Positions 2,346-21,734 of a stretch of 45,251 bases of DNA are shown here, piece by piece. Below the pieces are notes generated by a model that saw only the letters and a program-made list of their open reading frames with translations, did no database searches and had not been told where the DNA came from. Source of the stretch: Escherichia phage K1E. How positions within the stretch are numbered: position 1 is the stretch's first letter; the number at the start of each line of letters is the position of its first letter. The stretch is taken from sequence record NC_007637.1. The stretch is one strand, 5' to 3'. The translations under genes were made by a program, and so were the position numbers.

Positions 2346-2672
2346 ATGGAACGCAATGCTAACGCTTACTACAATCTTCTGGCTGCAACTGTTGAAGCAT
2401 TCAACGAGCGCATTCAGTACGATGAGATCCGCGAAGGTGATGATTACTCTGATGCACTACATGAGGTTGTAGACAGCAATGTTCCAGTTTATTACAGCGA
2501 AATCTTTACTGTGATGGCTGCTGATGGCATTGATATTGAATTTGAGGATGCAGGTTTGATTCCTGATACGAAGGATGTAACCAAGATTCTACAAGCTCGC
2601 ATCTATGAGTCTCTTTATAATGATGTACCAAATGATAGTGATGTAGTTTGGTATGAAGACGAGGAAGAATAA
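2346..2672 (+). CDS. Ocr-like acidic protein (candidate DNA-mimic anti-restriction protein, 108 aa)
   Basis: Very acidic protein. The stretch IQYDEIREGDDYSDALHEVVDSNVPVYYSEIFTVMAADGIDIEFEDAGLIPDTKDVTKILQARIYESL closely parallels T7 gp0.3 (Ocr) as I remember it; needs alignment to confirm. Confidence 0.6.
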   Translation: MERNANAYYNLLAATVEAFNERIQYDEIREGDDYSDALHEVVDSNVPVYYSEIFTVMAADGIDIEFEDAGLIPDTKDVTKILQARIYESLYNDVPNDSDVVWYEDEEE

Positions 2673-7187: not shown

Positions 7188-7406
7188 ATGGCTAAATACA
7201 GAATCAAGACCTGTTTAAATAGTCACGGGCAAGAGTGTTACATAGTGCAACGTAAAGTATTAGGCTTAATATGGGTCACATGTATGATGCCTATTGGATA
7301 TACTGATACAGAGGCTATCTTCTGCACCGAAAGGGATGCAAAGCAGTTTATCTCTAAGCGTAGAAAAGCTGACTCTTATCAACCCAGAACTATTAAGGTG
7401 AACTAA
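7188..7406 (+). CDS. Hypothetical protein (72 aa)
   Basis: Track ORF; its stop overlaps the primase ATG (TAATG). Confidence 0.45.
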   Translation: MAKYRIKTCLNSHGQECYIVQRKVLGLIWVTCMMPIGYTDTEAIFCTERDAKQFISKRRKADSYQPRTIKVN

Positions 7407-9394
7407 TGGCTATTATTAATAACATCCCGTGTCCTGCTTGTCAGAAGAATGGACACGATAAATCCGGCAACCACCTCATGATATTTGATGATGGTGCTGG
7501 CTATTGCAACCGTGGTCACTTCCATGATAATGGCAAGCCCTACTATCACAAGCCAGAGGGTGGCATCGAGATAACCGAATTGCCTATTACTGGCAATATC
7601 AAATATACACCTTCTCAATTCAAAGAGATGGAGAAGGAAGGGAAGATAAGCGACCCTAAGTTGCGCGCCATCGCACTTGGTGGTATGCGTATGAAAGACC
7701 GTTGGGAGGTCATGAATGAGCAAGAAAGGGCAGACCAAGAAGCAGAGTGGAAACTTGATGTTGAATGGTTCCTCACGCTTAAGCGTAAGAACCTTGTGTC
7801 CCGTCACATTCGAGGTGACATCGCAGCAATGTACGATGTGCGCGTTGGACACGATGAAGAGGGAAGAGTCAACCGTCACTATTATCCACGATATGAAAAG
7901 GGTGTGCTTGTTGGAGCAAAATGCCGGACGTTGCCGAAGGATTTTAAGTTCGGACACCTAGGTAAACTCTTTGGTATGCAAGACCTTTTCGGTATGAATA
8001 CTTTGTCTCACGTGTTAGACAAGGGAAGACGAAAGGATTGCTTGCTTATTGTGGGCGGCGAACTGGATGCACTAGCAGCACAGCAAATGCTCCTTGATTC
8101 TGCCAAGGGTACTAAGTGGGAAGGCCAGCCTTACCATGTATGGTCTGCCAATAAAGGTGAGTCTTGCCTTGAAGAGATAGTGCAAAACCGTGAGCACATA
8201 GCCCAATTCAAGAAGATTATATGGGGCTTTGATGGCGACGAGGTGGGGCAGAAGCAGAACCAACAAGCTGCTCGCCTGTTTCCTGGCAAATCCTACATCC
8301 TCGAATATCCCTCTGGTTGCAAAGATGCTAACAAGGCATTGATGGCTGGCAAGGCTAAAGAGTTTGTTGATGCTTGGTTTAATGCCAAGTCATCTGATGA
8401 AGTCTTTGGTAGCCAGATTAAATCTATCGCATCTCAAAGGGATAAGCTCAAGGCTGCACGTCCAGAGCAAGGACTATCATGGCCTTGGCCTAAGCTGAAC
8501 AAGGTAACGCTAGGTATTCGTAAGAACCAGCTTATCATTGTAGGTGCAGGCTCTGGTGTAGGTAAGACTGAGTTCCTTCGTGAAGTAGTTAAGCACCTCA
8601 TTGAAGAACACGGTGAATCTGTAGGCATCATTTCTACAGAAGACCCGATGGTCAAGGTGTCCCGTGCTTTTATCGGCAAGTGGATTGATAAGCGTATTGA
8701 GTTACCGCCAACCAACGACCCGAAAGAAGACGGATACCGTGAGGTGTTCGACTACACCGAGGAAGAAGCTAACGCTGCCATTGATTATGTGGCTGATACA
8801 GGAAAGTTATTTGTGGCTGACCTAGAAGGCGACTATTCTATGGAGAAGGTAGAGCAAACTTGCCTAGAGTTTGAGGCTATGGGCATTTCTAATATCATCA
8901 TTGATAACTTAACGGGGATTAAATTAGATGAGCGTGCTTTTGGTGGGAAGGTTGGTGCACTTGATGAATGCGTCAAACGAATTGGTACTATCAAAGACCG
9001 ACATGCGGTTACGATTTTCCTTGTCTCTCACCTTACACGTCCTCCGGCAAACCGTACCCAACACGAAGAAGGTGGCGAAGTTATCCTTTCTGACTTCCGA
9101 GGCTCAGGCGCTATCGGATTCTGGGCATCTTACGCCTTGGGGATTGAGCGTAATACAAGAGCTGAAACGCTTGACGAAAGGACTACCACGTACATCTCAT
9201 GTGTCAAAGACCGCGACCAAGGTATCTGGACTGGAACCAAGGTCATGCTTAAGGGTGACATTCAAACCGGACGTTTAATGGAACCACAAGCCCGTACTAA
9301 GTCATTTGATACAGGTGAAGCAAGGCAACAAGAAGTGCCGGATTTACCGGACACTATAGAAGAGACAACCTTTGACGATGAACAGGAGTTTTAA
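7406..9394 (+). CDS. DNA primase/helicase (T7 gp4-like, 662 aa)
   Basis: N-terminal Cys4 zinc ribbon (CPACQKNGHD...CNRGH), Walker A GAGSGVGKTEF, acidic C-terminus ...FDDEQEF ending in Phe as in T7 gp4. Confidence 0.9.
   Translation: MAIINNIPCPACQKNGHDKSGNHLMIFDDGAGYCNRGHFHDNGKPYYHKPEGGIEITELPITGNIKYTPSQFKEMEKEGKISDPKLRAIALGGMRMKDRWEVMNEQERADQEAEWKLDVEWFLTLKRKNLVSRHIRGDIAAMYDVRVGHDEEGRVNRHYYPRYEKGVLVGAKCRTLPKDFKFGHLGKLFGMQDLFGMNTLSHVLDKGRRKDCLLIVGGELDALAAQQMLLDSAKGTKWEGQPYHVWSANKGESCLEEIVQNREHIAQFKKIIWGFDGDEVGQKQNQQAARLFPGKSYILEYPSGCKDANKALMAGKAKEFVDAWFNAKSSDEVFGSQIKSIASQRDKLKAARPEQGLSWPWPKLNKVTLGIRKNQLIIVGAGSGVGKTEFLREVVKHLIEEHGESVGIISTEDPMVKVSRAFIGKWIDKRIELPPTNDPKEDGYREVFDYTEEEANAAIDYVADTGKLFVADLEGDYSMEKVEQTCLEFEAMGISNIIIDNLTGIKLDERAFGGKVGALDECVKRIGTIKDRHAVTIFLVSHLTRPPANRTQHEEGGEVILSDFRGSGAIGFWASYALGIERNTRAETLDERTTTYISCVKDRDQGIWTGTKVMLKGDIQTGRLMEPQARTKSFDTGEARQQEVPDLPDTIEETTFDDEQEF
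9342..9364 (+). promoter_or_regulatory. SP6-type phage promoter inside the 3' end of the primase/helicase gene (+1 G at 9359)
   Basis: ATTTACCGGACACTATAGAAGAG; perfect core. Confidence 0.7.
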
Positions 9395-10904: not shown

Positions 10905-11109
10905 AGTCAGTAAGGTTTGCTCTTGCGGTAAAGGTTATCGCAGTCGTATTGATGGTAAGTGTGGGCATTGCAGGTCTAAGAAAGAGGCTGCTTTGTTTGA
11001 TAAGTACCACAATGAATTAGCATATAACTATCCTCATCTAACACCTAATTCTTTATTAGGACTTGGTTATAGGGTTAAATACTTTGGAGCAATCTATGAA
11101 ATCAATTGA
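10891..11109 (+). CDS. Hypothetical Cys-rich (zinc-ribbon-like) protein (72 aa)
   Basis: Track ORF trimmed to ATG 10891 (GAGG 6 nt upstream); CSCGKGYRSRIDGKCGHC. Confidence 0.45.
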   Translation: MKAIKVSKVCSCGKGYRSRIDGKCGHCRSKKEAALFDKYHNELAYNYPHLTPNSLLGLGYRVKYFGAIYEIN

Positions 11110-13642
11110 TTGGAAGAAGGAAGCAGAAGGCCGCATCTTAGTGATGGATTCTGAGGCTAAAGGCCTGCTGGATGCTATCCGATATGGCCACCGCGAAGAT
11201 GTGCACATCATTTGCTGCATGGATTTGCTTACTACAGAGGAGTTCCTCTTCTTTGACCCATACGAGATGCGTGACCCTGAAGCAAGAGAACGCCTAAAAG
11301 AATGGGAAGGCCATCAAGATGGAACATTGGTTGACGGTGTTAACTTCCTTAAACACTGCGAAGCCATCGTCTCACAGAACTTCCTAGGGTACGACGGCCT
11401 TCTATTTGAGAAAGCATTCCCTGATATCTGGAAAGGCTTTAACTATACCGAGAGACGCGGCAAGGGCAGACTCCGCGCTGACCTGTGTCCGGTACGCGTC
11501 ATGGATACGCTGGTCATGAGTCGCCTGTTAAACCCCGATAGACGCCTCCCTCCGCAAGCATACGCCAAAGGCATGGGTAACGTAGCCCCTCACTCAATTG
11601 AGGCGCACGGCATTCGTATAGGCCGTTATAAGCCGGAGAACGAGGATTGGTCTAAACTAACTGACCACATGGTACATCGTGTACGCGAGGACGTGGCGAT
11701 AGGCCGTGACCTATTCCTCTGGCTATTTAACGGAGAATGGACGGAGCACAAACGCCGTGGCGTGAATAAACGCACTGGCCTAGGTATTGAGACAGCCTTC
11801 CACATGGAGTCCATTGTGGCGCTGGAGATGAGCCGTCAGGCCGAGCGTGGATTCCGTCTGGATATAGATAAAGCATTAGCACGATGCGAGGAATTGGACG
11901 CTAAGATTGATGAGACAGTCGCAGCGTTCCGTCCGCACATGCCTATGCGTATCAAGTCTAAACCTTTTAAACCGGAAGAAAAGAATGAAGTATGCCAACG
12001 CGCAAATGAGTATGGAGCTAGCAACAATATACCTACTGTCCTTGACCCCTCTCACTTTCTTCACGCAGAGAGACGAGGAGATCGCAAGACAGTATGGAGT
12101 GTCACTACTAAGTCTGGTGATTGGTCGGCTAGCGTCAAGAAAGACTTTCCTCACCTTAGAGGAAACCGTAATGACACGCCAAGCATCAAGTGGATTGGCG
12201 CTTACTCGCCTGTTACTTTCGAAGAGATTCCCTTGGGTAACAGGGATACAGTTAAGCAAGTGCTCTATGATTATGGATGGAAAGGTGTTGAATTTAACGA
12301 TACCGAGCAAGCGCATCTCGATGAGCATGGCGTATTACCCAAGCCTTGGAGTGGGAAGATAAATGAAAAGTCCCTTACTTTATGGCAAGAGAGAGCCGCA
12401 CGTGAAGGTAAAACAGTCCCTGATTGGTGCTTGGGTATCGCTGCATGGTACATACTCGTATCCCGTCGTGGTCAGATCCTCAACCGTGGTGACGTTGAAG
12501 CCTTCGACCAGAAGGGGGTGTGGCCTTCGCAAGCTGGTATACGAAAGTGTCGCGGCCTTGTACCTGTAGCATTTAACAAGGAGTTAGGAATCAATGCGCA
12601 GCAATACTACGAAAGGTACGGATGCTGGCCTACGTCAGACAAGGATGACGGAGAATGGCGTGTGCCAGCTATTGCTATTAGTATTGGAACTTCTACGTTC
12701 CGTATGCGTCATCGTAACGTGGTTAATATTCCTGCCCGTGGTTTGTATCCTTTACGTGATTTATTCATAGCCGGTAAAGGTAAGCTAATCCTTGGTTGTG
12801 ATGGTGCTGGTCTTGAACTACGTGTACTGTCTCACTTCATGAATGACCCTGAATATCAAGATATTGTACTGCATGGTGACATTCACACCCATAATCAAAT
12901 GAAGGCTGGTCTTCCTAAGCGTGACATGGCGAAGACATTTATATATGCCTTCCTATATGGGTCTGGTATAGCTAACCTTGCAGCAGTATGTGGTGTTACT
13001 GAGGAAGAAATGGAGGAAGTTGTGGCAAGATTTGAGGTTGAACTACCATCTCTTGCACGTCTTCGTGAGAATGTTATCGCACAAGGTAACAAGTTTGGCT
13101 ACCTACAAGCACCTGATGGTCATTGGGGTCGCATCCGTATGTCTGGTGGTGAACTTAAAGAGCACACTATGCTTAACGTACTACTCCAGATGACTGGTTC
13201 TCTGTGTATGAAATACGCATTGGTCAGAGCGTTTGCAGTGATGCGCAAGGAAGGTGTGGCCTTAGATAGCATGGGAAACCCTTGCGGTATAGCTAACGTG
13301 CACGATGAAATCCAGATGGAAGTCCCTGAAGATGAGGTCTTGTATCTCAACTACGACTTGCCTTTCACCTTAGAAGGGTTCGAAACAGAGAAGGCTGCTG
13401 TGAAAGCAGTGTTCGATGCAGAGGAGAAACGTGTTCATGTGGATTCTGAAGGACGTATGTGGTCTGCTGCAAATCTCGTTAGCGTTGATGCTGATGCTGG
13501 TGTACTTCATTGCCAGCGTCGCTATCACCGTGCAGGGCATATCATTGCCGACGCAATGACTTGGGCGGGTCAGTATCTGAAGATGCGTTGTCCGATGGCA
13601 GGTGAGTATAAGATTGGTGCAAGTTGGAAGGAAACACACTGA
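11096..13642 (+). CDS. DNA polymerase, family A (848 aa)
   Basis: Track ORF trimmed to ATG 11096 (GGAG upstream). Exonuclease motif VMDSEAKG, motif A CDGAGLELRVL, motif B RDMAKTFIYAFLYG, motif C VHDEIQ. Confidence 0.9.
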   Translation: MKSIDWKKEAEGRILVMDSEAKGLLDAIRYGHREDVHIICCMDLLTTEEFLFFDPYEMRDPEARERLKEWEGHQDGTLVDGVNFLKHCEAIVSQNFLGYDGLLFEKAFPDIWKGFNYTERRGKGRLRADLCPVRVMDTLVMSRLLNPDRRLPPQAYAKGMGNVAPHSIEAHGIRIGRYKPENEDWSKLTDHMVHRVREDVAIGRDLFLWLFNGEWTEHKRRGVNKRTGLGIETAFHMESIVALEMSRQAERGFRLDIDKALARCEELDAKIDETVAAFRPHMPMRIKSKPFKPEEKNEVCQRANEYGASNNIPTVLDPSHFLHAERRGDRKTVWSVTTKSGDWSASVKKDFPHLRGNRNDTPSIKWIGAYSPVTFEEIPLGNRDTVKQVLYDYGWKGVEFNDTEQAHLDEHGVLPKPWSGKINEKSLTLWQERAAREGKTVPDWCLGIAAWYILVSRRGQILNRGDVEAFDQKGVWPSQAGIRKCRGLVPVAFNKELGINAQQYYERYGCWPTSDKDDGEWRVPAIAISIGTSTFRMRHRNVVNIPARGLYPLRDLFIAGKGKLILGCDGAGLELRVLSHFMNDPEYQDIVLHGDIHTHNQMKAGLPKRDMAKTFIYAFLYGSGIANLAAVCGVTEEEMEEVVARFEVELPSLARLRENVIAQGNKFGYLQAPDGHWGRIRMSGGELKEHTMLNVLLQMTGSLCMKYALVRAFAVMRKEGVALDSMGNPCGIANVHDEIQMEVPEDEVLYLNYDLPFTLEGFETEKAAVKAVFDAEEKRVHVDSEGRMWSAANLVSVDADAGVLHCQRRYHRAGHIIADAMTWAGQYLKMRCPMAGEYKIGASWKETH

Positions 13643-14695: not shown

Positions 14696-14716
14696 TTACT
14701 GGACACTATAGAACAA
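14694..14716 (+). promoter_or_regulatory. SP6-type phage promoter (+1 G at 14711)
   Basis: AATTACTGGACACTATAGAACAA; overlaps the upstream stop codon. Confidence 0.7.
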
Positions 14717-14864
14717 TAGGTCGGCTTAGTTCGGCCTATGATTGTAAAGTGTCGTTGATGTTGAACCATTGTGCACCTTGCACAACCCGATACCGTATCG
14801 GGCTTTCTAGTGAGCACATGCTTGTGCTCAGTACAAAGCTAACTGACAATAGGAGACTAAATAA

Positions 14865-15671
14865 ATGGCACGTGGTGATTTCGATTTTGGTGCTTCCGTA
14901 TCTAAAGCTGAAGGTAAAGTCTTTAAGAATCCAGAAGTAGGTGATCATGAAGCAGTAATCTCTGGCATCATTCATGTTGGTTCCTTCCAAGACATCTTTA
15001 AGAAAGGTAATACCACTGAAGTTAAGAAGCCAGCAAACTTTGTTCTGGTTAAGATTGTCCTGATGGGTGACGATGACAAGAACGAAGATGGTTCTCGCAT
15101 GGAACAATGGATGGCTGTGCCTCTGAAGTCTGGTGATAAGGCAACACTGACTAAGTTCCTGAATGCAGTTGACCCTAAAGAGTTGCTGGGTGGCTTCGAT
15201 GATTTTATCGGTGAATGTCTGACTGCAACTATGGTTGGCTCTGGCGACAAGAATGATGATGGTACTTTCAAGTATGTTAACTGGAAAGGCTTTGGCGGTA
15301 TGCCTGATAAGTTGAAGAAGCTTGTACTGGCTCAGGTAGAAGAGGAAGGTCTGTCTATGACAGGTCATATCACCTTCGACAAGCTGACCAAAGAAATCAT
15401 TGATGACATCCCAGCTAACTTGGTACGTCAATACTTCCTGAACGAGACACCTCGTGGTAAGAACCTGTCTGTTGCTGGCTCTCACGTAGAAGCTATTATC
15501 AAAGCTGCTCGTGAAGAAGACCCTGAATGGAAGAAGGCTAAGAAGAAAGACGAGGAAGATGCTACCCCAGCTAATCGTAAATCTCTGGATACTGGTGAGT
15601 CTGTTCCGCAGGAAGTACCTGAAGCAGAAGATACGCCTGCACCGGAGATGGATGAGGACGCGGAATATTAA
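14865..15671 (+). CDS. Hypothetical replication-associated protein with acidic C-terminal tail (268 aa); candidate ssDNA-binding protein
   Basis: AGGAGA RBS; C-terminus ...PEMDEDAEY (acidic, aromatic last residue) resembles the DNA-polymerase-binding tails of T7 gp2.5 and gp4. N-terminal DFDFGASVS motif is shared with the exonuclease. Confidence 0.4.
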   Translation: MARGDFDFGASVSKAEGKVFKNPEVGDHEAVISGIIHVGSFQDIFKKGNTTEVKKPANFVLVKIVLMGDDDKNEDGSRMEQWMAVPLKSGDKATLTKFLNAVDPKELLGGFDDFIGECLTATMVGSGDKNDDGTFKYVNWKGFGGMPDKLKKLVLAQVEEEGLSMTGHITFDKLTKEIIDDIPANLVRQYFLNETPRGKNLSVAGSHVEAIIKAAREEDPEWKKAKKKDEEDATPANRKSLDTGESVPQEVPEAEDTPAPEMDEDAEY

Positions 15672-15680
15672 GGAGAACGG

Positions 15681-15899
15681 ATGAAAGTACAAATCGTAAC
15701 TCTGCATTGCAAGAAAGGAATCACCACACTTGGCGGCAATACTTTTCACTCCTTCTCTGAAGGGGAGACATACGCCGACCTTCACTATATCTGGCGTGAC
15801 GGGCAGCACGTGGTGAACTACAGCGACCCTGCGACTGGTAAACGCCACGGCGTGTCGCTTCCGGCGCACGACATTGCTCAGGTGAACACAGTTTTATAA
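15681..15899 (+). CDS. Hypothetical protein (72 aa)
   Basis: ATG with AGGAGA upstream. Confidence 0.5.
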   Translation: MKVQIVTLHCKKGITTLGGNTFHSFSEGETYADLHYIWRDGQHVVNYSDPATGKRHGVSLPAHDIAQVNTVL

Positions 15900-15900
15900 A

Positions 15901-15916
15901 GTCTCACGTGTGAGAC
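15901..15916. repeat. Palindromic hairpin variant GTCTCACGTGTGAGAC
   Basis: Reverse complement of the 10750 variant; lies immediately upstream of the promoter at 15932. Confidence 0.6.
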
Positions 15917-15931
15917 AAATCGGTGTCCGGT

Positions 15932-15954
15932 ATTTACTGGACACTATAGAAGAG
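15932..15954 (+). promoter_or_regulatory. SP6-type phage promoter (+1 G at 15949)
   Basis: ATTTACTGGACACTATAGAAGAG; perfect core. Confidence 0.8.
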
Positions 15955-16004
15955 AAGAATTTTAATCGGCGATAATGCCATAACCAACAAAAGGAGAATT
16001 TAAT

Positions 16005-16376
16005 ATGTTCAAGATTGAAACTATCGTAAACCGTGTTGTTAAAGGTGCTGCTCTGGTATCCGTTGAGTCTTTCATTATCGTCGATGAAGCTGATCAACTG
16101 GTAGCTGGTACTAAGGCTTACGATACCCGTGAAGAAGCTCAGGCTAAGATTGACAGCATGGGTAACTTCGCTGCTGGTCTGGAGTTTGCTCGTGCTTGCT
16201 TCCCTGAGCAGGCTGACAAAGCCCAGATCGGTAAGGCTAACATCGTAGCTGAATATCTGGATTGGATTGCTGCTGGTAAACCAGTGAAAGAAGTTAAAGC
16301 TGCTGAAGAAGCTGAAGCTCCGGCAGTAGAAGTGTCTGCACCGGAAGCTCCGGTTAGCGAAGAGGAAGAGTTTTGA
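16005..16376 (+). CDS. Abundant small protein with acidic C-terminal tail ending in Phe (123 aa); candidate ssDNA-binding or polymerase accessory protein
   Basis: Strong RBS AAAGGAGA; codon usage typical of a highly expressed gene; C-terminus ...APVSEEEEF. Confidence 0.4.
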   Translation: MFKIETIVNRVVKGAALVSVESFIIVDEADQLVAGTKAYDTREEAQAKIDSMGNFAAGLEFARACFPEQADKAQIGKANIVAEYLDWIAAGKPVKEVKAAEEAEAPAVEVSAPEAPVSEEEEF

Positions 16377-16434
16377 TAATAGCAGGTGTAGCCTCTGTTA
16401 GTCCTAGTTGACTATCACGCTCACCTCATCTAAT

Positions 16435-16470
16435 GCCCTGTCTGCCTTAGTGTAGGCAGGGTCTTTTGCG
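16435..16470 (+). terminator. Candidate hairpin terminator
   Basis: ctgcct-tagtgt-aggcag stem-loop in a GC-rich context, followed by ggtcttttg. Confidence 0.35.
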
Positions 16471-16493
16471 TAATAGTTATTGGAGAATGAATT

Positions 16494-16766
16494 ATGCCGA
16501 CTATTGAATCTCGAATTGAACTGGACATTAGCTACAATGCAATCACCAGACAGTATATTGGGGTTGCCTATGATTACAAAACTGGTGAGAAGCTAGTGGA
16601 GGTGAGACAATGGGATGACTATTGGTTAAGACAGAACCTCCATGATGCGGTGTCCTCCTTCTTGAAGGAGTGGCCTACATGCGACCAAACTTCGACTTCG
16701 GAGCTACAGTATCGGAAGACAATAATCTCATCCTGTGGCCAACTGAAGGTAATCGAATCGCTTTAA
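16494..16766 (+). CDS. Hypothetical protein (90 aa as read); 3' end overlaps the exonuclease gene by 88 nt
   Basis: ATG with GGAGA upstream; the true C-terminus is uncertain. Confidence 0.3.
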   Translation: MPTIESRIELDISYNAITRQYIGVAYDYKTGEKLVEVRQWDDYWLRQNLHDAVSSFLKEWPTCDQTSTSELQYRKTIISSCGQLKVIESL

Positions 16767-17704
16767 TAGATGCTGATATGTTACCCTACATCGTAGGTTA
16801 TACAATCAGTGACATGACTTATTTACGAGCCACAACTCGTGTTAAGTCAGGACAAGTCCCATCAATCAAAGATACACCTGAGTGTAAGCAAGCATGTGAC
16901 CGTGTGAACTCCTTGCTTAACTCTTGGGTGTATGCAGCAGAGTGTGATGCAGCTAAGCTATTCATGACGAAATCAGAAGCTAACTTCCGTGTCCGCCTAG
17001 CATTCACAAAGCCTTATAAGGGTCAACGTAAGACCGAGAAGCCTCCGTTCTTCTATGAATTGCGAGAGCATCTCTTAGAGGTTCACGGTGCAATCTTGGC
17101 AGATGGTGAGGAAGCTGATGACCTCATGAGCATCGCACAATGGGATAGCCACCGCCGCTTCCAGCAAGATACAGGTAACGAGTTCGCTATCGGTAGTCCA
17201 GAGCATAAAGCATTCTCTGATACTTGCATCGTTTCCTTAGATAAGGATTTGATGATTGTTCCCGGTTGGCATCTACAGCCGGGTCAAGAGAAGAAGTGGG
17301 TAGAGCCTATGGGCTGGCTTGAGCTACGCCGTAAGGTTAATGGGCAAGTCAAAGATCTAAAAGGTGCTGGCCTCATGTTCCACTATGCACAGATGATTAT
17401 CGGTGATGATATTGATAACTATGCTGGCATACCAGGTCGTGGTGCTAAATATGCCTATGATCTTCTCAAAGATTGTAAGACAGAGAAAGAGTTGTACATG
17501 GCAGTGCTGGGTGCTTACAAGGCTAAGTTCGGGCATGGACAAGTTAAAATTAAGAATTACCGAGGTGGTTATCGTATCGGCAAAGCCTTTGACCTAATGC
17601 TTGAGTGTGGTCGCTTAGCTCACATGGCAAGATTCAAGGGTGATATATGGCGAGCCGATAAGAACCCAATCTTGTGGGGAGATGAAGGATGGCTACAAAG
17701 TTAA
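16679..17704 (+). CDS. 5'-3' exonuclease (FEN/T7 gp6-like, 341 aa)
   Basis: Track ORF starts at GTG 16670; first ATG is 16679 with AGGAG upstream; acidic active-site stretch ALIDADMLPYIVGY; lies in the replication module. Confidence 0.7.
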   Translation: MRPNFDFGATVSEDNNLILWPTEGNRIALIDADMLPYIVGYTISDMTYLRATTRVKSGQVPSIKDTPECKQACDRVNSLLNSWVYAAECDAAKLFMTKSEANFRVRLAFTKPYKGQRKTEKPPFFYELREHLLEVHGAILADGEEADDLMSIAQWDSHRRFQQDTGNEFAIGSPEHKAFSDTCIVSLDKDLMIVPGWHLQPGQEKKWVEPMGWLELRRKVNGQVKDLKGAGLMFHYAQMIIGDDIDNYAGIPGRGAKYAYDLLKDCKTEKELYMAVLGAYKAKFGHGQVKIKNYRGGYRIGKAFDLMLECGRLAHMARFKGDIWRADKNPILWGDEGWLQS

Positions 17705-18102
17705 AAGCATCTGAAGTTGCTGCTTATAAGAAAGAGTTGCTAGAGAAGCAGGGCTGGAAATGTCCTATTTGTGGAGCACCTCTTAAAGCAGTGGCCGAGA
17801 TTAACCGAGTACTAGACCATTGCCATCGCAGAGGTTACTGTAGAGCGGTACTCTGTCGTGGGTGCAATGGCGGTATCGGGAAGATAGAAAACCTAGTAAA
17901 GACTTATTGTAAGGCTGGGGATAATGAGTATTTCATTATCAAGACATTGCGAAACATTGCAGATTATCTAGACTTACATAGTAAGCCTCAGACTGATAAG
18001 ATTTATCATAAACATCAAACGGAGGCAGAGAAGCGCGAGGCTAAGAACCGTAAGGCACGCCTTGCTTATGCAAGAAAGAAGAAGGAGGTTAAAGTTGGGT
18101 AA
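17689..18102 (+). CDS. Endonuclease VII-like junction-resolving nuclease (137 aa)
   Basis: CPICGAPL...LDHCHRRGYCRAVLCRGCNGGIG matches the T4 endonuclease VII zinc/His-Me finger pattern. Confidence 0.7.
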   Translation: MATKLKASEVAAYKKELLEKQGWKCPICGAPLKAVAEINRVLDHCHRRGYCRAVLCRGCNGGIGKIENLVKTYCKAGDNEYFIIKTLRNIADYLDLHSKPQTDKIYHKHQTEAEKREAKNRKARLAYARKKKEVKVG

Positions 18103-21143: not shown

Positions 21144-21276
21144 GGGTATGGAGATGCTTGAGATGATTCTCAAGCCTTCTTCTCCGAAGGTGACTAAGAC
21201 TCACGAAGAATTAATCGTAGATGAAGTGAAGCGTTACATAATGGATTGTGTCAGAGCACAACTGGTGGTCCAATGA
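21106..21276 (+). CDS. Hypothetical small protein (56 aa); start uncertain
   Basis: Track ORF starts at TTG 21094; ATG 21106 with GAGGA upstream; overlaps its neighbour. Confidence 0.25.
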   Translation: MVQTKKKPTISFEGMEMLEMILKPSSPKVTKTHEELIVDEVKRYIMDCVRAQLVVQ

Positions 21277-21734
21277 TACGTCCAGCTTCATTCTTAGATA
21301 TTCCTGAGATTATAAACCTTGGGAATAAGTACGTGGAAGAGGAAGTCAAGGTTGTAGCCCATCACTCAGCCTCATGGAATGCAGAACAAAGCGCACATAA
21401 CCTTTGTGCATCTCTTAGTAGAGAAGATTTATTCCTATGGGTGGCTGTAGATGAAGGGCAGATTGTAGGTTTTCTGTGGGCCGGCTATCATGAGTTAGCC
21501 CCTTGGACACCTGTAAGAGTTGCATCTGACATTCTCTTTTATATTGTACCAGAGAAGCGAGGGACACTGCTCGGTATGCGCCTCATCAAAGCCTTGAAGC
21601 AATGGGCTAATGATAGTGGGTGTTCCGAGGTCCGCCTGTCTATCGCTTCTGGTATTAATGAAGAACGTGTCGGACGTATGTATAAGCGACTTGGCTTTGA
21701 ACAGTTTGGCACTGTGTATAACCTGAAGTTCTAA
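21273..21734 (+). CDS. GNAT-family N-acetyltransferase (153 aa)
   Basis: Track ORF trimmed to ATG 21273 (ATGA overlap); acetyl-CoA-binding-like stretch QIVGFLW...EKRGTLLGMRLIKAL. Confidence 0.55.
   Translation: MIRPASFLDIPEIINLGNKYVEEEVKVVAHHSASWNAEQSAHNLCASLSREDLFLWVAVDEGQIVGFLWAGYHELAPWTPVRVASDILFYIVPEKRGTLLGMRLIKALKQWANDSGCSEVRLSIASGINEERVGRMYKRLGFEQFGTVYNLKF

Follow-up and report, generated by a model that had tools for sequence, protein, structure and literature searches.

A short N-terminal motif shared by a probable single-stranded DNA-binding protein and a FEN-type exonuclease of Escherichia phage K1E, a candidate replisome docking peptide

In the genome of Escherichia phage K1E (NC_007637.1; 45,251 nucleotides, the whole of which was analysed and is called the window hereafter), two otherwise unrelated proteins begin with nearly the same peptide, FDFGA(S/T)VS. 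One is the product of a gene termed here gene A, which is probably the SSB (single-stranded DNA-binding protein) of this phage group, and the other is a FEN-type 5′-3′ exonuclease. The motif is retained in distant homologues of both proteins, its two copies co-vary within genomes, and they are replaced or lost together. It is probably a functional docking peptide shared by the two proteins, and there is about an even chance that both copies address one common receptor encoded by the phage.

Two carriers of one N-terminal motif

The features concerned are:

14865..15671, plus strand: gene A, homologue of K1-5 gp16 and SP6 gp18, 268 residues
14865-14918, plus strand: disordered N-terminal tail of gene A, residues 1-18, predicted local distance difference test score (pLDDT) < 50
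14880..14903, plus strand: motif copy 1, FDFGASVS, residues 6-13 of gene A, within the disordered tail
15546..15668, plus strand: acidic disordered C-terminal tail of gene A, ending in ...PEMDEDAEY, with a conserved terminal Y/F
16665..16670, plus strand: ribosome-binding site AAGGAG, which fixes the exonuclease start at ATG 16679
16679..17704, plus strand: 5′-3′ exonuclease of the FEN family, homologue of T7 gp6, 341 residues
16691..16714, plus strand: motif copy 2, FDFGATVS, residues 5-12 of the exonuclease

Gene A starts with MARGDFDFGASVS from the ATG at 14865, with AGGAG at 14851-14855, 9 nt upstream, and the exonuclease starts with MRPNFDFGATVS from the ATG at 16679, with AAGGAG 8 nt upstream. 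The GTG at 16670, an alternative start listed by the open reading frame (ORF) finder, was rejected because it overlaps the ribosome-binding site, and because K1-5 and the clustered homologues begin with MRPNF. A preliminary description of the window had reported the shared N-terminal FDFGA(S/T)VS and synonymous differences between the DNAs encoding it, and both were borne out by direct reading. The two copies match at 7 of 8 residues, and of their 8 codons 3 are identical and 4 are synonymous (GAT/GAC, TTT/TTC, GGT/GGA and TCT/TCG), while the remaining one changes the amino acid, TCC for Ser in gene A and ACA for Thr in the exonuclease. Across all six reading frames, the window contains FDFG only at these N-termini, once in each. 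When the first 20 residues of 52 crudely called plus-strand genes were compared, the next best pair reached 5/8, and a best match of at least 7/8 had a probability of 0.0067 in 3000 shuffles. In addition, hhalign of the two family alignments gave a single match of 32 N-terminal columns (E = 7.7e-5, probability 62%), so that the similarity of the two proteins reaches weakly past the 8-mer. An aromatic-x-x-G element just before strand 1 is presumably present in T4 RNase H too; if so, this element would belong to the FEN fold, and the shared module would comprise the first ~8 residues only.

The presence of the motif in orthologues of related phages, which the preliminary description had proposed as a check, was clear. 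In a large protein collection, F-x-[FYMWHAL]-G was found within the first 20 residues in 45 of the 46 clusters of gene-A homologues, the lone exception being N-terminally truncated, and in 115 of the 120 exonuclease clusters, where truncation or a wrong start accounts for four of the five exceptions and the motif is truly missing from one. It persists in both families down to ~36% identity. The alignments of the two families extend to members 39% and 45% identical to the window proteins and show no change of F or G. In detail, F6, G9, and A10 are invariant in 30 gene-A homologues, and F5 and G8 in 39 exonuclease homologues. The consensus reads F-[DNE]-[FYM(A)]-G-[AG]-[ED]-[VIL], its F falling anywhere between positions 2 and 12; the conserved core, variable flanks, disordered region, and varying distance from the terminus are those of a short linear motif.

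The motif is also confined to these two families. The complete genomes of three distant relatives, Roth32 (Klebsiella), BUCT553 (Pseudomonas), and AS51 (Vibrio), each encode exactly two proteins with an N-terminal motif, the gene-A homologue and the exonuclease. A loose regular expression detected no third family carrying it at the N terminus in the window, these three genomes, or 79 viral loci (±10 kb around exonuclease homologues), and all other matches were internal, in polymerase or primase (e.g., FIYAFLYGSG in polymerase and DFxFGHLG in primase). The latter belongs to a conserved internal segment of the primase-helicase (7406-9394 of the window, around nt 7940), LPKDF[KSRNM]FGHLGK, which is superficially like DFDFG and lies at the same position in relatives; it is never N-terminal and shows no co-variation, reading F-x-F-G-H even in FDYGG lineages. 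In the literature library searched, no paper was found joining "FDFG" with bacteriophage and exonuclease.

Judged by its sequence, the exonuclease is a FEN-type 5′-3′ nuclease. It matches phrog_107 (E 5.7e-73), and D31, D33, D90, E145, D147, D148, D188, K189, D190, G242, D243, D246, and N247 are invariant in 39 homologues; it has the FEN hallmarks of acidic metal-binding residues (the xDxD strand, EADD, and DKD) and the H3TH signature GDxxDNxxG. The hhalign match to T7 gp6 (E 3.3e-6) covers residues 95-321 only, Pfam PF01367 scored 24 bits, under its 40-bit cut-off, and no PDB sequence match was found at E <= 0.01. An N-terminal extension of ~24 residues precedes the first catalytic strand (RIALIDAD). 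The start of the exonuclease gene is overlapped over 88 nt, in another frame, by a 90-residue ORF at 16494-16766 (annotated "DNA repair protein" in K1-5; phrog_10319), so that the motif DNA at 16691-16714 would be dual-coding if both are real genes.

Gene A has no Pfam family and is assigned to phrog_862 of "unknown function", and every one of the 214 phage records encoding a homologue labels it "hypothetical". AlphaFold2, run with a 30-sequence alignment, gave a confident beta-rich core at residues 20-227, which appears OB-fold-like, and pLDDT < 50 for residues 1-18, 228-258, and 266-268. A terminal or penultimate Y/F is kept in full-length homologues; the tails of T7 gp2.5 and of bacterial SSBs are characteristically acidic with an aromatic residue at the end. 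Because of the OB-fold-like model, the acidic Y/F-ended tail, and the genomic position, gene A was treated as the probable SSB. No sequence similarity to T7 gp2.5 was detected by hhalign (probability 0.08%), and no sequence relative was found among PDB chains. Residues 20-103 gave a sub-threshold NCBIfam match to NF046043, "phage replication initiation protein, NGO0469 family" (E 3.5e-4, 20 bits vs. a cut-off of 75). Opposite gene A lies an antisense ORF of 377 residues (14736-15869, minus strand), probably a by-product of codon bias.

Co-variation, joint replacement, and loss of the two copies

Variants of the motif are paired within genomes, FDFGA with FDFGA, FDYGG with FDYGG, FNYG with FNYG, and WDE[TG] with WDE[TG], as in the following copy pairs:

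Roth32 (Klebsiella): DNFDFGAEL / DNFDFGAEV
BUCT553 (Pseudomonas): FDYGGAVAE / FNYGGEIAE
AS51 (Vibrio): FDYGGEVAE / FDYGGGIAE
L063: FNYGTEE / FNYGCKEE
L060: FDFGVEV / FDFGIEL
CPG1g (Marinomonas): FDYGGEVAE / FDYGGEVSE
BD1 (Vibrio): FNAGA / FNYGA

With lineages defined as exonuclease cores < 60% identical, identity at the 8 variable positions was 3.40 within vs. 2.28 between genomes in 15 lineages (permutation p = 4.5e-4), and the within-genome excess had p = 0.002 at 11 lineages. Partial Mantel tests of peptide against peptide, with 4-7 core proteins controlled, gave r 0.26-0.41 (p <= 6e-4). A shared ancestral peptide followed by independent drift predicts no within-genome excess, whatever the tree. 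Among 86 identical-residue positions in the 15 lineages, the same codon was used at 44, vs. 40.9 expected from codon usage. Since codon identity is thus at expectation, the concerted pattern reflects selection on the peptides rather than recent gene conversion, which was rejected as the source of the similarity. The conservation is accordingly no DNA-level effect, in agreement with the selection at the protein level that the preliminary description had proposed. Its further suggestion, a shared interaction or targeting peptide, is supported indirectly in its first half (by the disordered tail, the co-variation, the joint replacement and loss, and the restriction to two families), while targeting found no support.

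Joint replacement is seen in the divergent lineage of L057 and L086, where neither protein retains the canonical motif and both have W-D-E-[TG] at an equivalent distance from the fold. The SSB-like protein and the exonuclease carry ..KSWDETESSGADFFKLPQG and ..PQWDEGEQIQLKVWPTEG in L057, and ..GGDWDETDAGGKDFFKLPAG and ..ATEWDEGNHSGFTKWEKTG in L086, the two exonucleases having additional WD[IV]D repeats upstream of WDE[TG]. A Lys-rich likeness of the extreme N-termini in L057 was discounted, as it is not repeated in its relative L086. Joint absence is found in L072 and L073, in which no residues precede the catalytic strand of the exonuclease, and the tail of the SSB-like protein, a weak hidden Markov model match, is without the motif.

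As to the opposite ends of these proteins, the exonucleases of the WDE lineage (L057, from about 9938; L086:3302-4429) end in ...EEDDIPF and ...EKEIPF, like the bacterial SSB tip DDDIPF, and the SSB-like protein of L072, which has no motif, closes with ...EGEDIPW. The nuclease of these lineages appears to borrow an SSB-type C-terminal tail too.

Receptor candidates and rival explanations

In the mechanism that we propose, F-[DNE]-[FYM]-G-[AG]-x-[VIL] would be a short linear docking motif on a flexible tail, ~10 residues before the folded domain of two otherwise unrelated carriers, the probable SSB (gene A, K1-5 gp16) and the FEN-type 5′-3′ exonuclease. The same binding site on a phage-encoded replisome component would read both copies, so that SSB and exonuclease would be recruited to, or compete for, one place, and the exonuclease would be delivered, or passed on, at the sites at which lagging-strand gaps covered by SSB are filled and RNA primers have to be removed. 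We infer all three elements of this scheme, namely protein binding by the motif, a common receptor, and the identity of that receptor. Taken as a whole, it would amount to a new class of replisome-organising peptide in the clamp-less SP6-like and Colwellvirinae podophages, in which one pocket, possibly on the DNA polymerase, binds SSB and flap exonuclease alternately via identical tails, a competitive hand-off couples gap filling to primer removal, and the long-missing SSB is identified; we regard this whole as plausible, at somewhat under an even chance.

Phage proteins that could serve as the receptor were compared by rate tracking, that is, partial Mantel tests on pairwise similarity matrices of 27-36 loci. 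Both peptides track the divergence of the DNA polymerase (partial r 0.49 and 0.55, p 2e-4, six other proteins controlled), and this was unchanged after collapse to 17 lineages. Against SSB core, exonuclease core, helicase, and ligase the partial r was about 0 (for peptide vs. SSB core -0.09 to 0.14, not significant), and against portal it was 0.25-0.40. Because both peptides track the polymerase and not the SSB core, the polymerase is weakly favoured, as a possible receptor to be taken tentatively, and the SSB core is disfavoured and unlikely. Some other phage protein is a rather unlikely receptor, and direct pairing of the two peptides is quite improbable. Two points weigh against the polymerase: the signal lies in its conserved N- and C-terminal parts and not in the K1-5-specific middle (277-555), and the polymerase may simply be the least noisy clock. 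Both members of the WDE lineage differ at three polymerase residues (W449Y, P510D/H, and W519Y/F) that hardly vary among 35 lineages with the canonical motif. All three lie within a region without counterpart in T7 gp5, and these changes are only a lead to a polymerase pocket, which the tracking signal did not place in the lineage-specific middle. In the same tests the SSB core tracked the primase-helicase (partial r 0.81) and the exonuclease core tracked the DNA polymerase (partial r 0.81). These two blocks are incongruent and non-contiguous, the gene order being helicase, polymerase, SSB, exonuclease, which suggests co-adapted pairs or mosaic exchange. The two replication genes concerned and two further genes whose products were considered as partners are:

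7406-9394: primase-helicase, placed as in the gene order of K1-5
11102..13642, plus strand: DNA polymerase, 846 residues, weakly favoured candidate receptor of the motif
16005-16376, plus strand: ~120-residue protein (123 residues, phrog_4429, K1-5 gp18), between gene A and the exonuclease
21246-21734, plus strand: GNAT acetyltransferase (PF00583, phrog_1249), just upstream of the portal gene

The ~120-residue protein is 43-47% identical across distant lineages (L001:22545-22904; L002:42870-43223, minus strand; L003:14945-15301) and always has an acidic tail with F as its last or nearly last residue (...SEEEEF, ...EDETF, ...EEETFE, and ...EDEEF), of the T7 gp2.5/gp4 type that binds polymerase in T7. 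It was rejected as an obligate receptor, being undetected in the motif-bearing L042, L058, L060, L063-L066, L068, L070, and L071. The GNAT acetyltransferase is kept in all motif-bearing lineages examined; it was rejected as a tail-recognising enzyme, since the SSB peptide does not track it (partial r 0.06; the exonuclease peptide gave 0.31), and N-terminal acetylation is disfavoured because the motif lies at differing distances from the N terminus.

Self-association of the SSB would offer another role for the motif, the N-terminal tail docking on the neighbouring SSB core in a cooperative filament on single-stranded DNA and the exonuclease copy docking on SSB-coated DNA. Such tails have precedents. 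In PrgE, the closest structural neighbour, the N-terminal tail binds the neighbouring monomer on single-stranded DNA, and a 12-residue deletion makes the protein monomeric (PMC11137577); in T4, the N-terminal peptide of gp32 mediates cooperativity, and its removal raises the affinity for RNase H (PMC3012046). The SSB core is also unusually divergent in L057 and L086, with an identity of 0.25 vs. 0.35-0.41 in lineages with similar divergence of polymerase, helicase, and exonuclease. However, when an SSB-SSB-exonuclease(1-16) single chain was modelled by AlphaFold2 with a 29-row alignment paired by genome, neither the tails nor the exonuclease peptide docked confidently on the SSB core: the SSB N-terminal tails had pLDDT 25-40 and the exonuclease peptide ~51, with isolated bridges. 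Neither do the peptides track the SSB core, although that core itself tracks the helicase closely, and self-association is an unlikely explanation.

A host receptor, such as the beta sliding clamp, host SSB, or host polymerase, would have a parallel in T7, which recruits host thioredoxin. NFDFGA is loosely like the clamp-binding motifs QL[SD]LF or QLSLPL, and no sliding-clamp family was found among 17 early- and replication-region proteins of the phage scanned against Pfam, PHROGs, and, for some of them, NCBIfam, structural genes lying outside the scan. Yet NFDFGA has neither the canonical Q nor the terminal hydrophobic residues, and its invariant F and G depart from the clamp-motif consensus. 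Moreover, Vibrio phages carry FDYGG (AS51), FDFGAE (JSF38), or FN[AY]GA (BD1), and the peptides of the V. cholerae phage JSF38 nearly match those of Klebsiella phage Roth32. Because the variable positions follow phage lineage and not host, a phage-encoded receptor is favoured, and host-specific adaptation of the motif was rejected; within-genome co-variation would also be unexpected for a conserved host pocket, and a host receptor is quite unlikely. More doubtful is a pseudo-substrate acting in cis, in which the aromatic-acid-aromatic peptide would mimic a dinucleotide and block ssDNA binding by the protein that carries it, sitting in the binding site until DNA displaces it. Both proteins count as ssDNA binders (gene A by prediction), the tether is short and similar, with ~14-15 residues from the F to the conserved aromatic residue before strand 1, and acidic or aromatic SSB tails fold back on OB grooves in T7 gp2.5 and E. 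coli SSB. But two unrelated folds impose different constraints, which leaves the co-variation unexplained, and in the AlphaFold models the tail takes up no position in cis. Chance, or a relic of shared ancestry with no common function, could appeal to the shortness of the motif and to the 62% hhalign probability of the 32-column match; it is effectively refuted by the window shuffle, the conservation to ~36% identity, the significant co-variation, and the concerted replacement.

Genomic setting and parallels in known systems

The window contains a nearly complete genome, that of a K1-5/K1E-like Vectrevirus (Autographiviridae, Molineuxvirinae), and its region 14700-17800 is 94-98% identical to many K1-5/K1E-like phages. 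Its genes are ordered as in K1-5, namely RNA polymerase, primase-helicase, DNA polymerase, small genes, gp16 (gene A), gp17, gp18, gp19, exonuclease, endonuclease VII, and metallophosphoesterase. An Ocr-like DNA-mimic anti-restriction protein is encoded in the early region (2346-2672, plus strand; PF08684, E 4e-32). Within 15900-15954, a perfect palindrome, GTCTCACGTGTGAGAC, at 15901-15916 is followed at 15932-15954, upstream of gp18, by the SP6/K1-5-type promoter-like sequence ATTTACTGGACACTATAGAAGAG, to which TGGACACTATAGAACAA at 14700-14716, upstream of gene A, is related.

Both therapy and enzyme production draw on SP6/K1-5-like phages, whose replication machinery has mostly been deduced from T7. 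The SSB assignment would give the gene-A family, "hypothetical" throughout its phage records, a probable function, and the shared docking peptide could reveal how Okazaki fragments are matured in a clamp-less replisome. The natural variants FDFGA, FDYGG, FNYG, and WDE[TG] are a ready specificity series for a receptor search. If the receptor is essential, the peptide would be a template for inhibitors of phage replication, and the motif may help to account for compatibility barriers in mosaic phage genomes.

Among known systems, the PIP boxes of T4 are similar in arrangement. T4 RNase H, a FEN nuclease, carries an N-terminal PIP-box peptide, a motif of this type also stands at the C terminus of the gp43 polymerase, and both bind the gp45 clamp (PMC3012046). 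As in T4, a terminal peptide is common here to unrelated replication proteins, and the copy in the FEN nuclease is N-terminal, just before the first catalytic strand. Unlike in T4, the second carrier is an SSB-like protein and not a polymerase, and the motif is F-[DNE]-[FYM]-G-[AG] instead of Qxxhxxaa. The PIP-box and beta-clamp consensus sequences (Qxxhxxaa or QL[SD]LF) do not describe it, as its invariant residues are F and G, position 5 is A or G, and no Q is conserved. To our knowledge, T7-supergroup phages have no sliding clamp.

Disordered tails also serve as hub-docking elements of the replisome in E. coli SSB (...DDDIPF) and in T7, where the tails of gp2.5 and gp4 bind the gp5 polymerase. 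Gene A (...MDEDAEY) and the neighbouring 123-residue protein (...SEEEEF) carry C-terminal tails of this E. coli SSB/gp2.5 type. The shared motif differs from such tails in being N-terminal, hydrophobic, and not acidic, in having an invariant glycine, and in being common to a nuclease; we know of no case in which a nuclease carries a copy of an SSB tail. A disordered N-terminal tail on an OB-fold ssDNA binder, predicted for gene A, is known from the B-domain of T4 gp32 and from PrgE, and in T4 the FEN nuclease competes with the gp32 N-terminal tail for the SSB core. Unlike in gp32 and PrgE, docking on the SSB core is unsupported here, given the low confidence of the modelled tails and the lack of tracking with that core. 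With respect to T7, the exonuclease is a gp6 homologue, and gene A is part of the replication-gene cluster, with a tail chemistry like that of gp2.5; T7 gp6 is not known to have either the extension or the motif. The docking logic would thus be that of PIP boxes, bacterial clamp-binding motifs, and the C-terminal tips of SSBs, while the sequence fits none of them.

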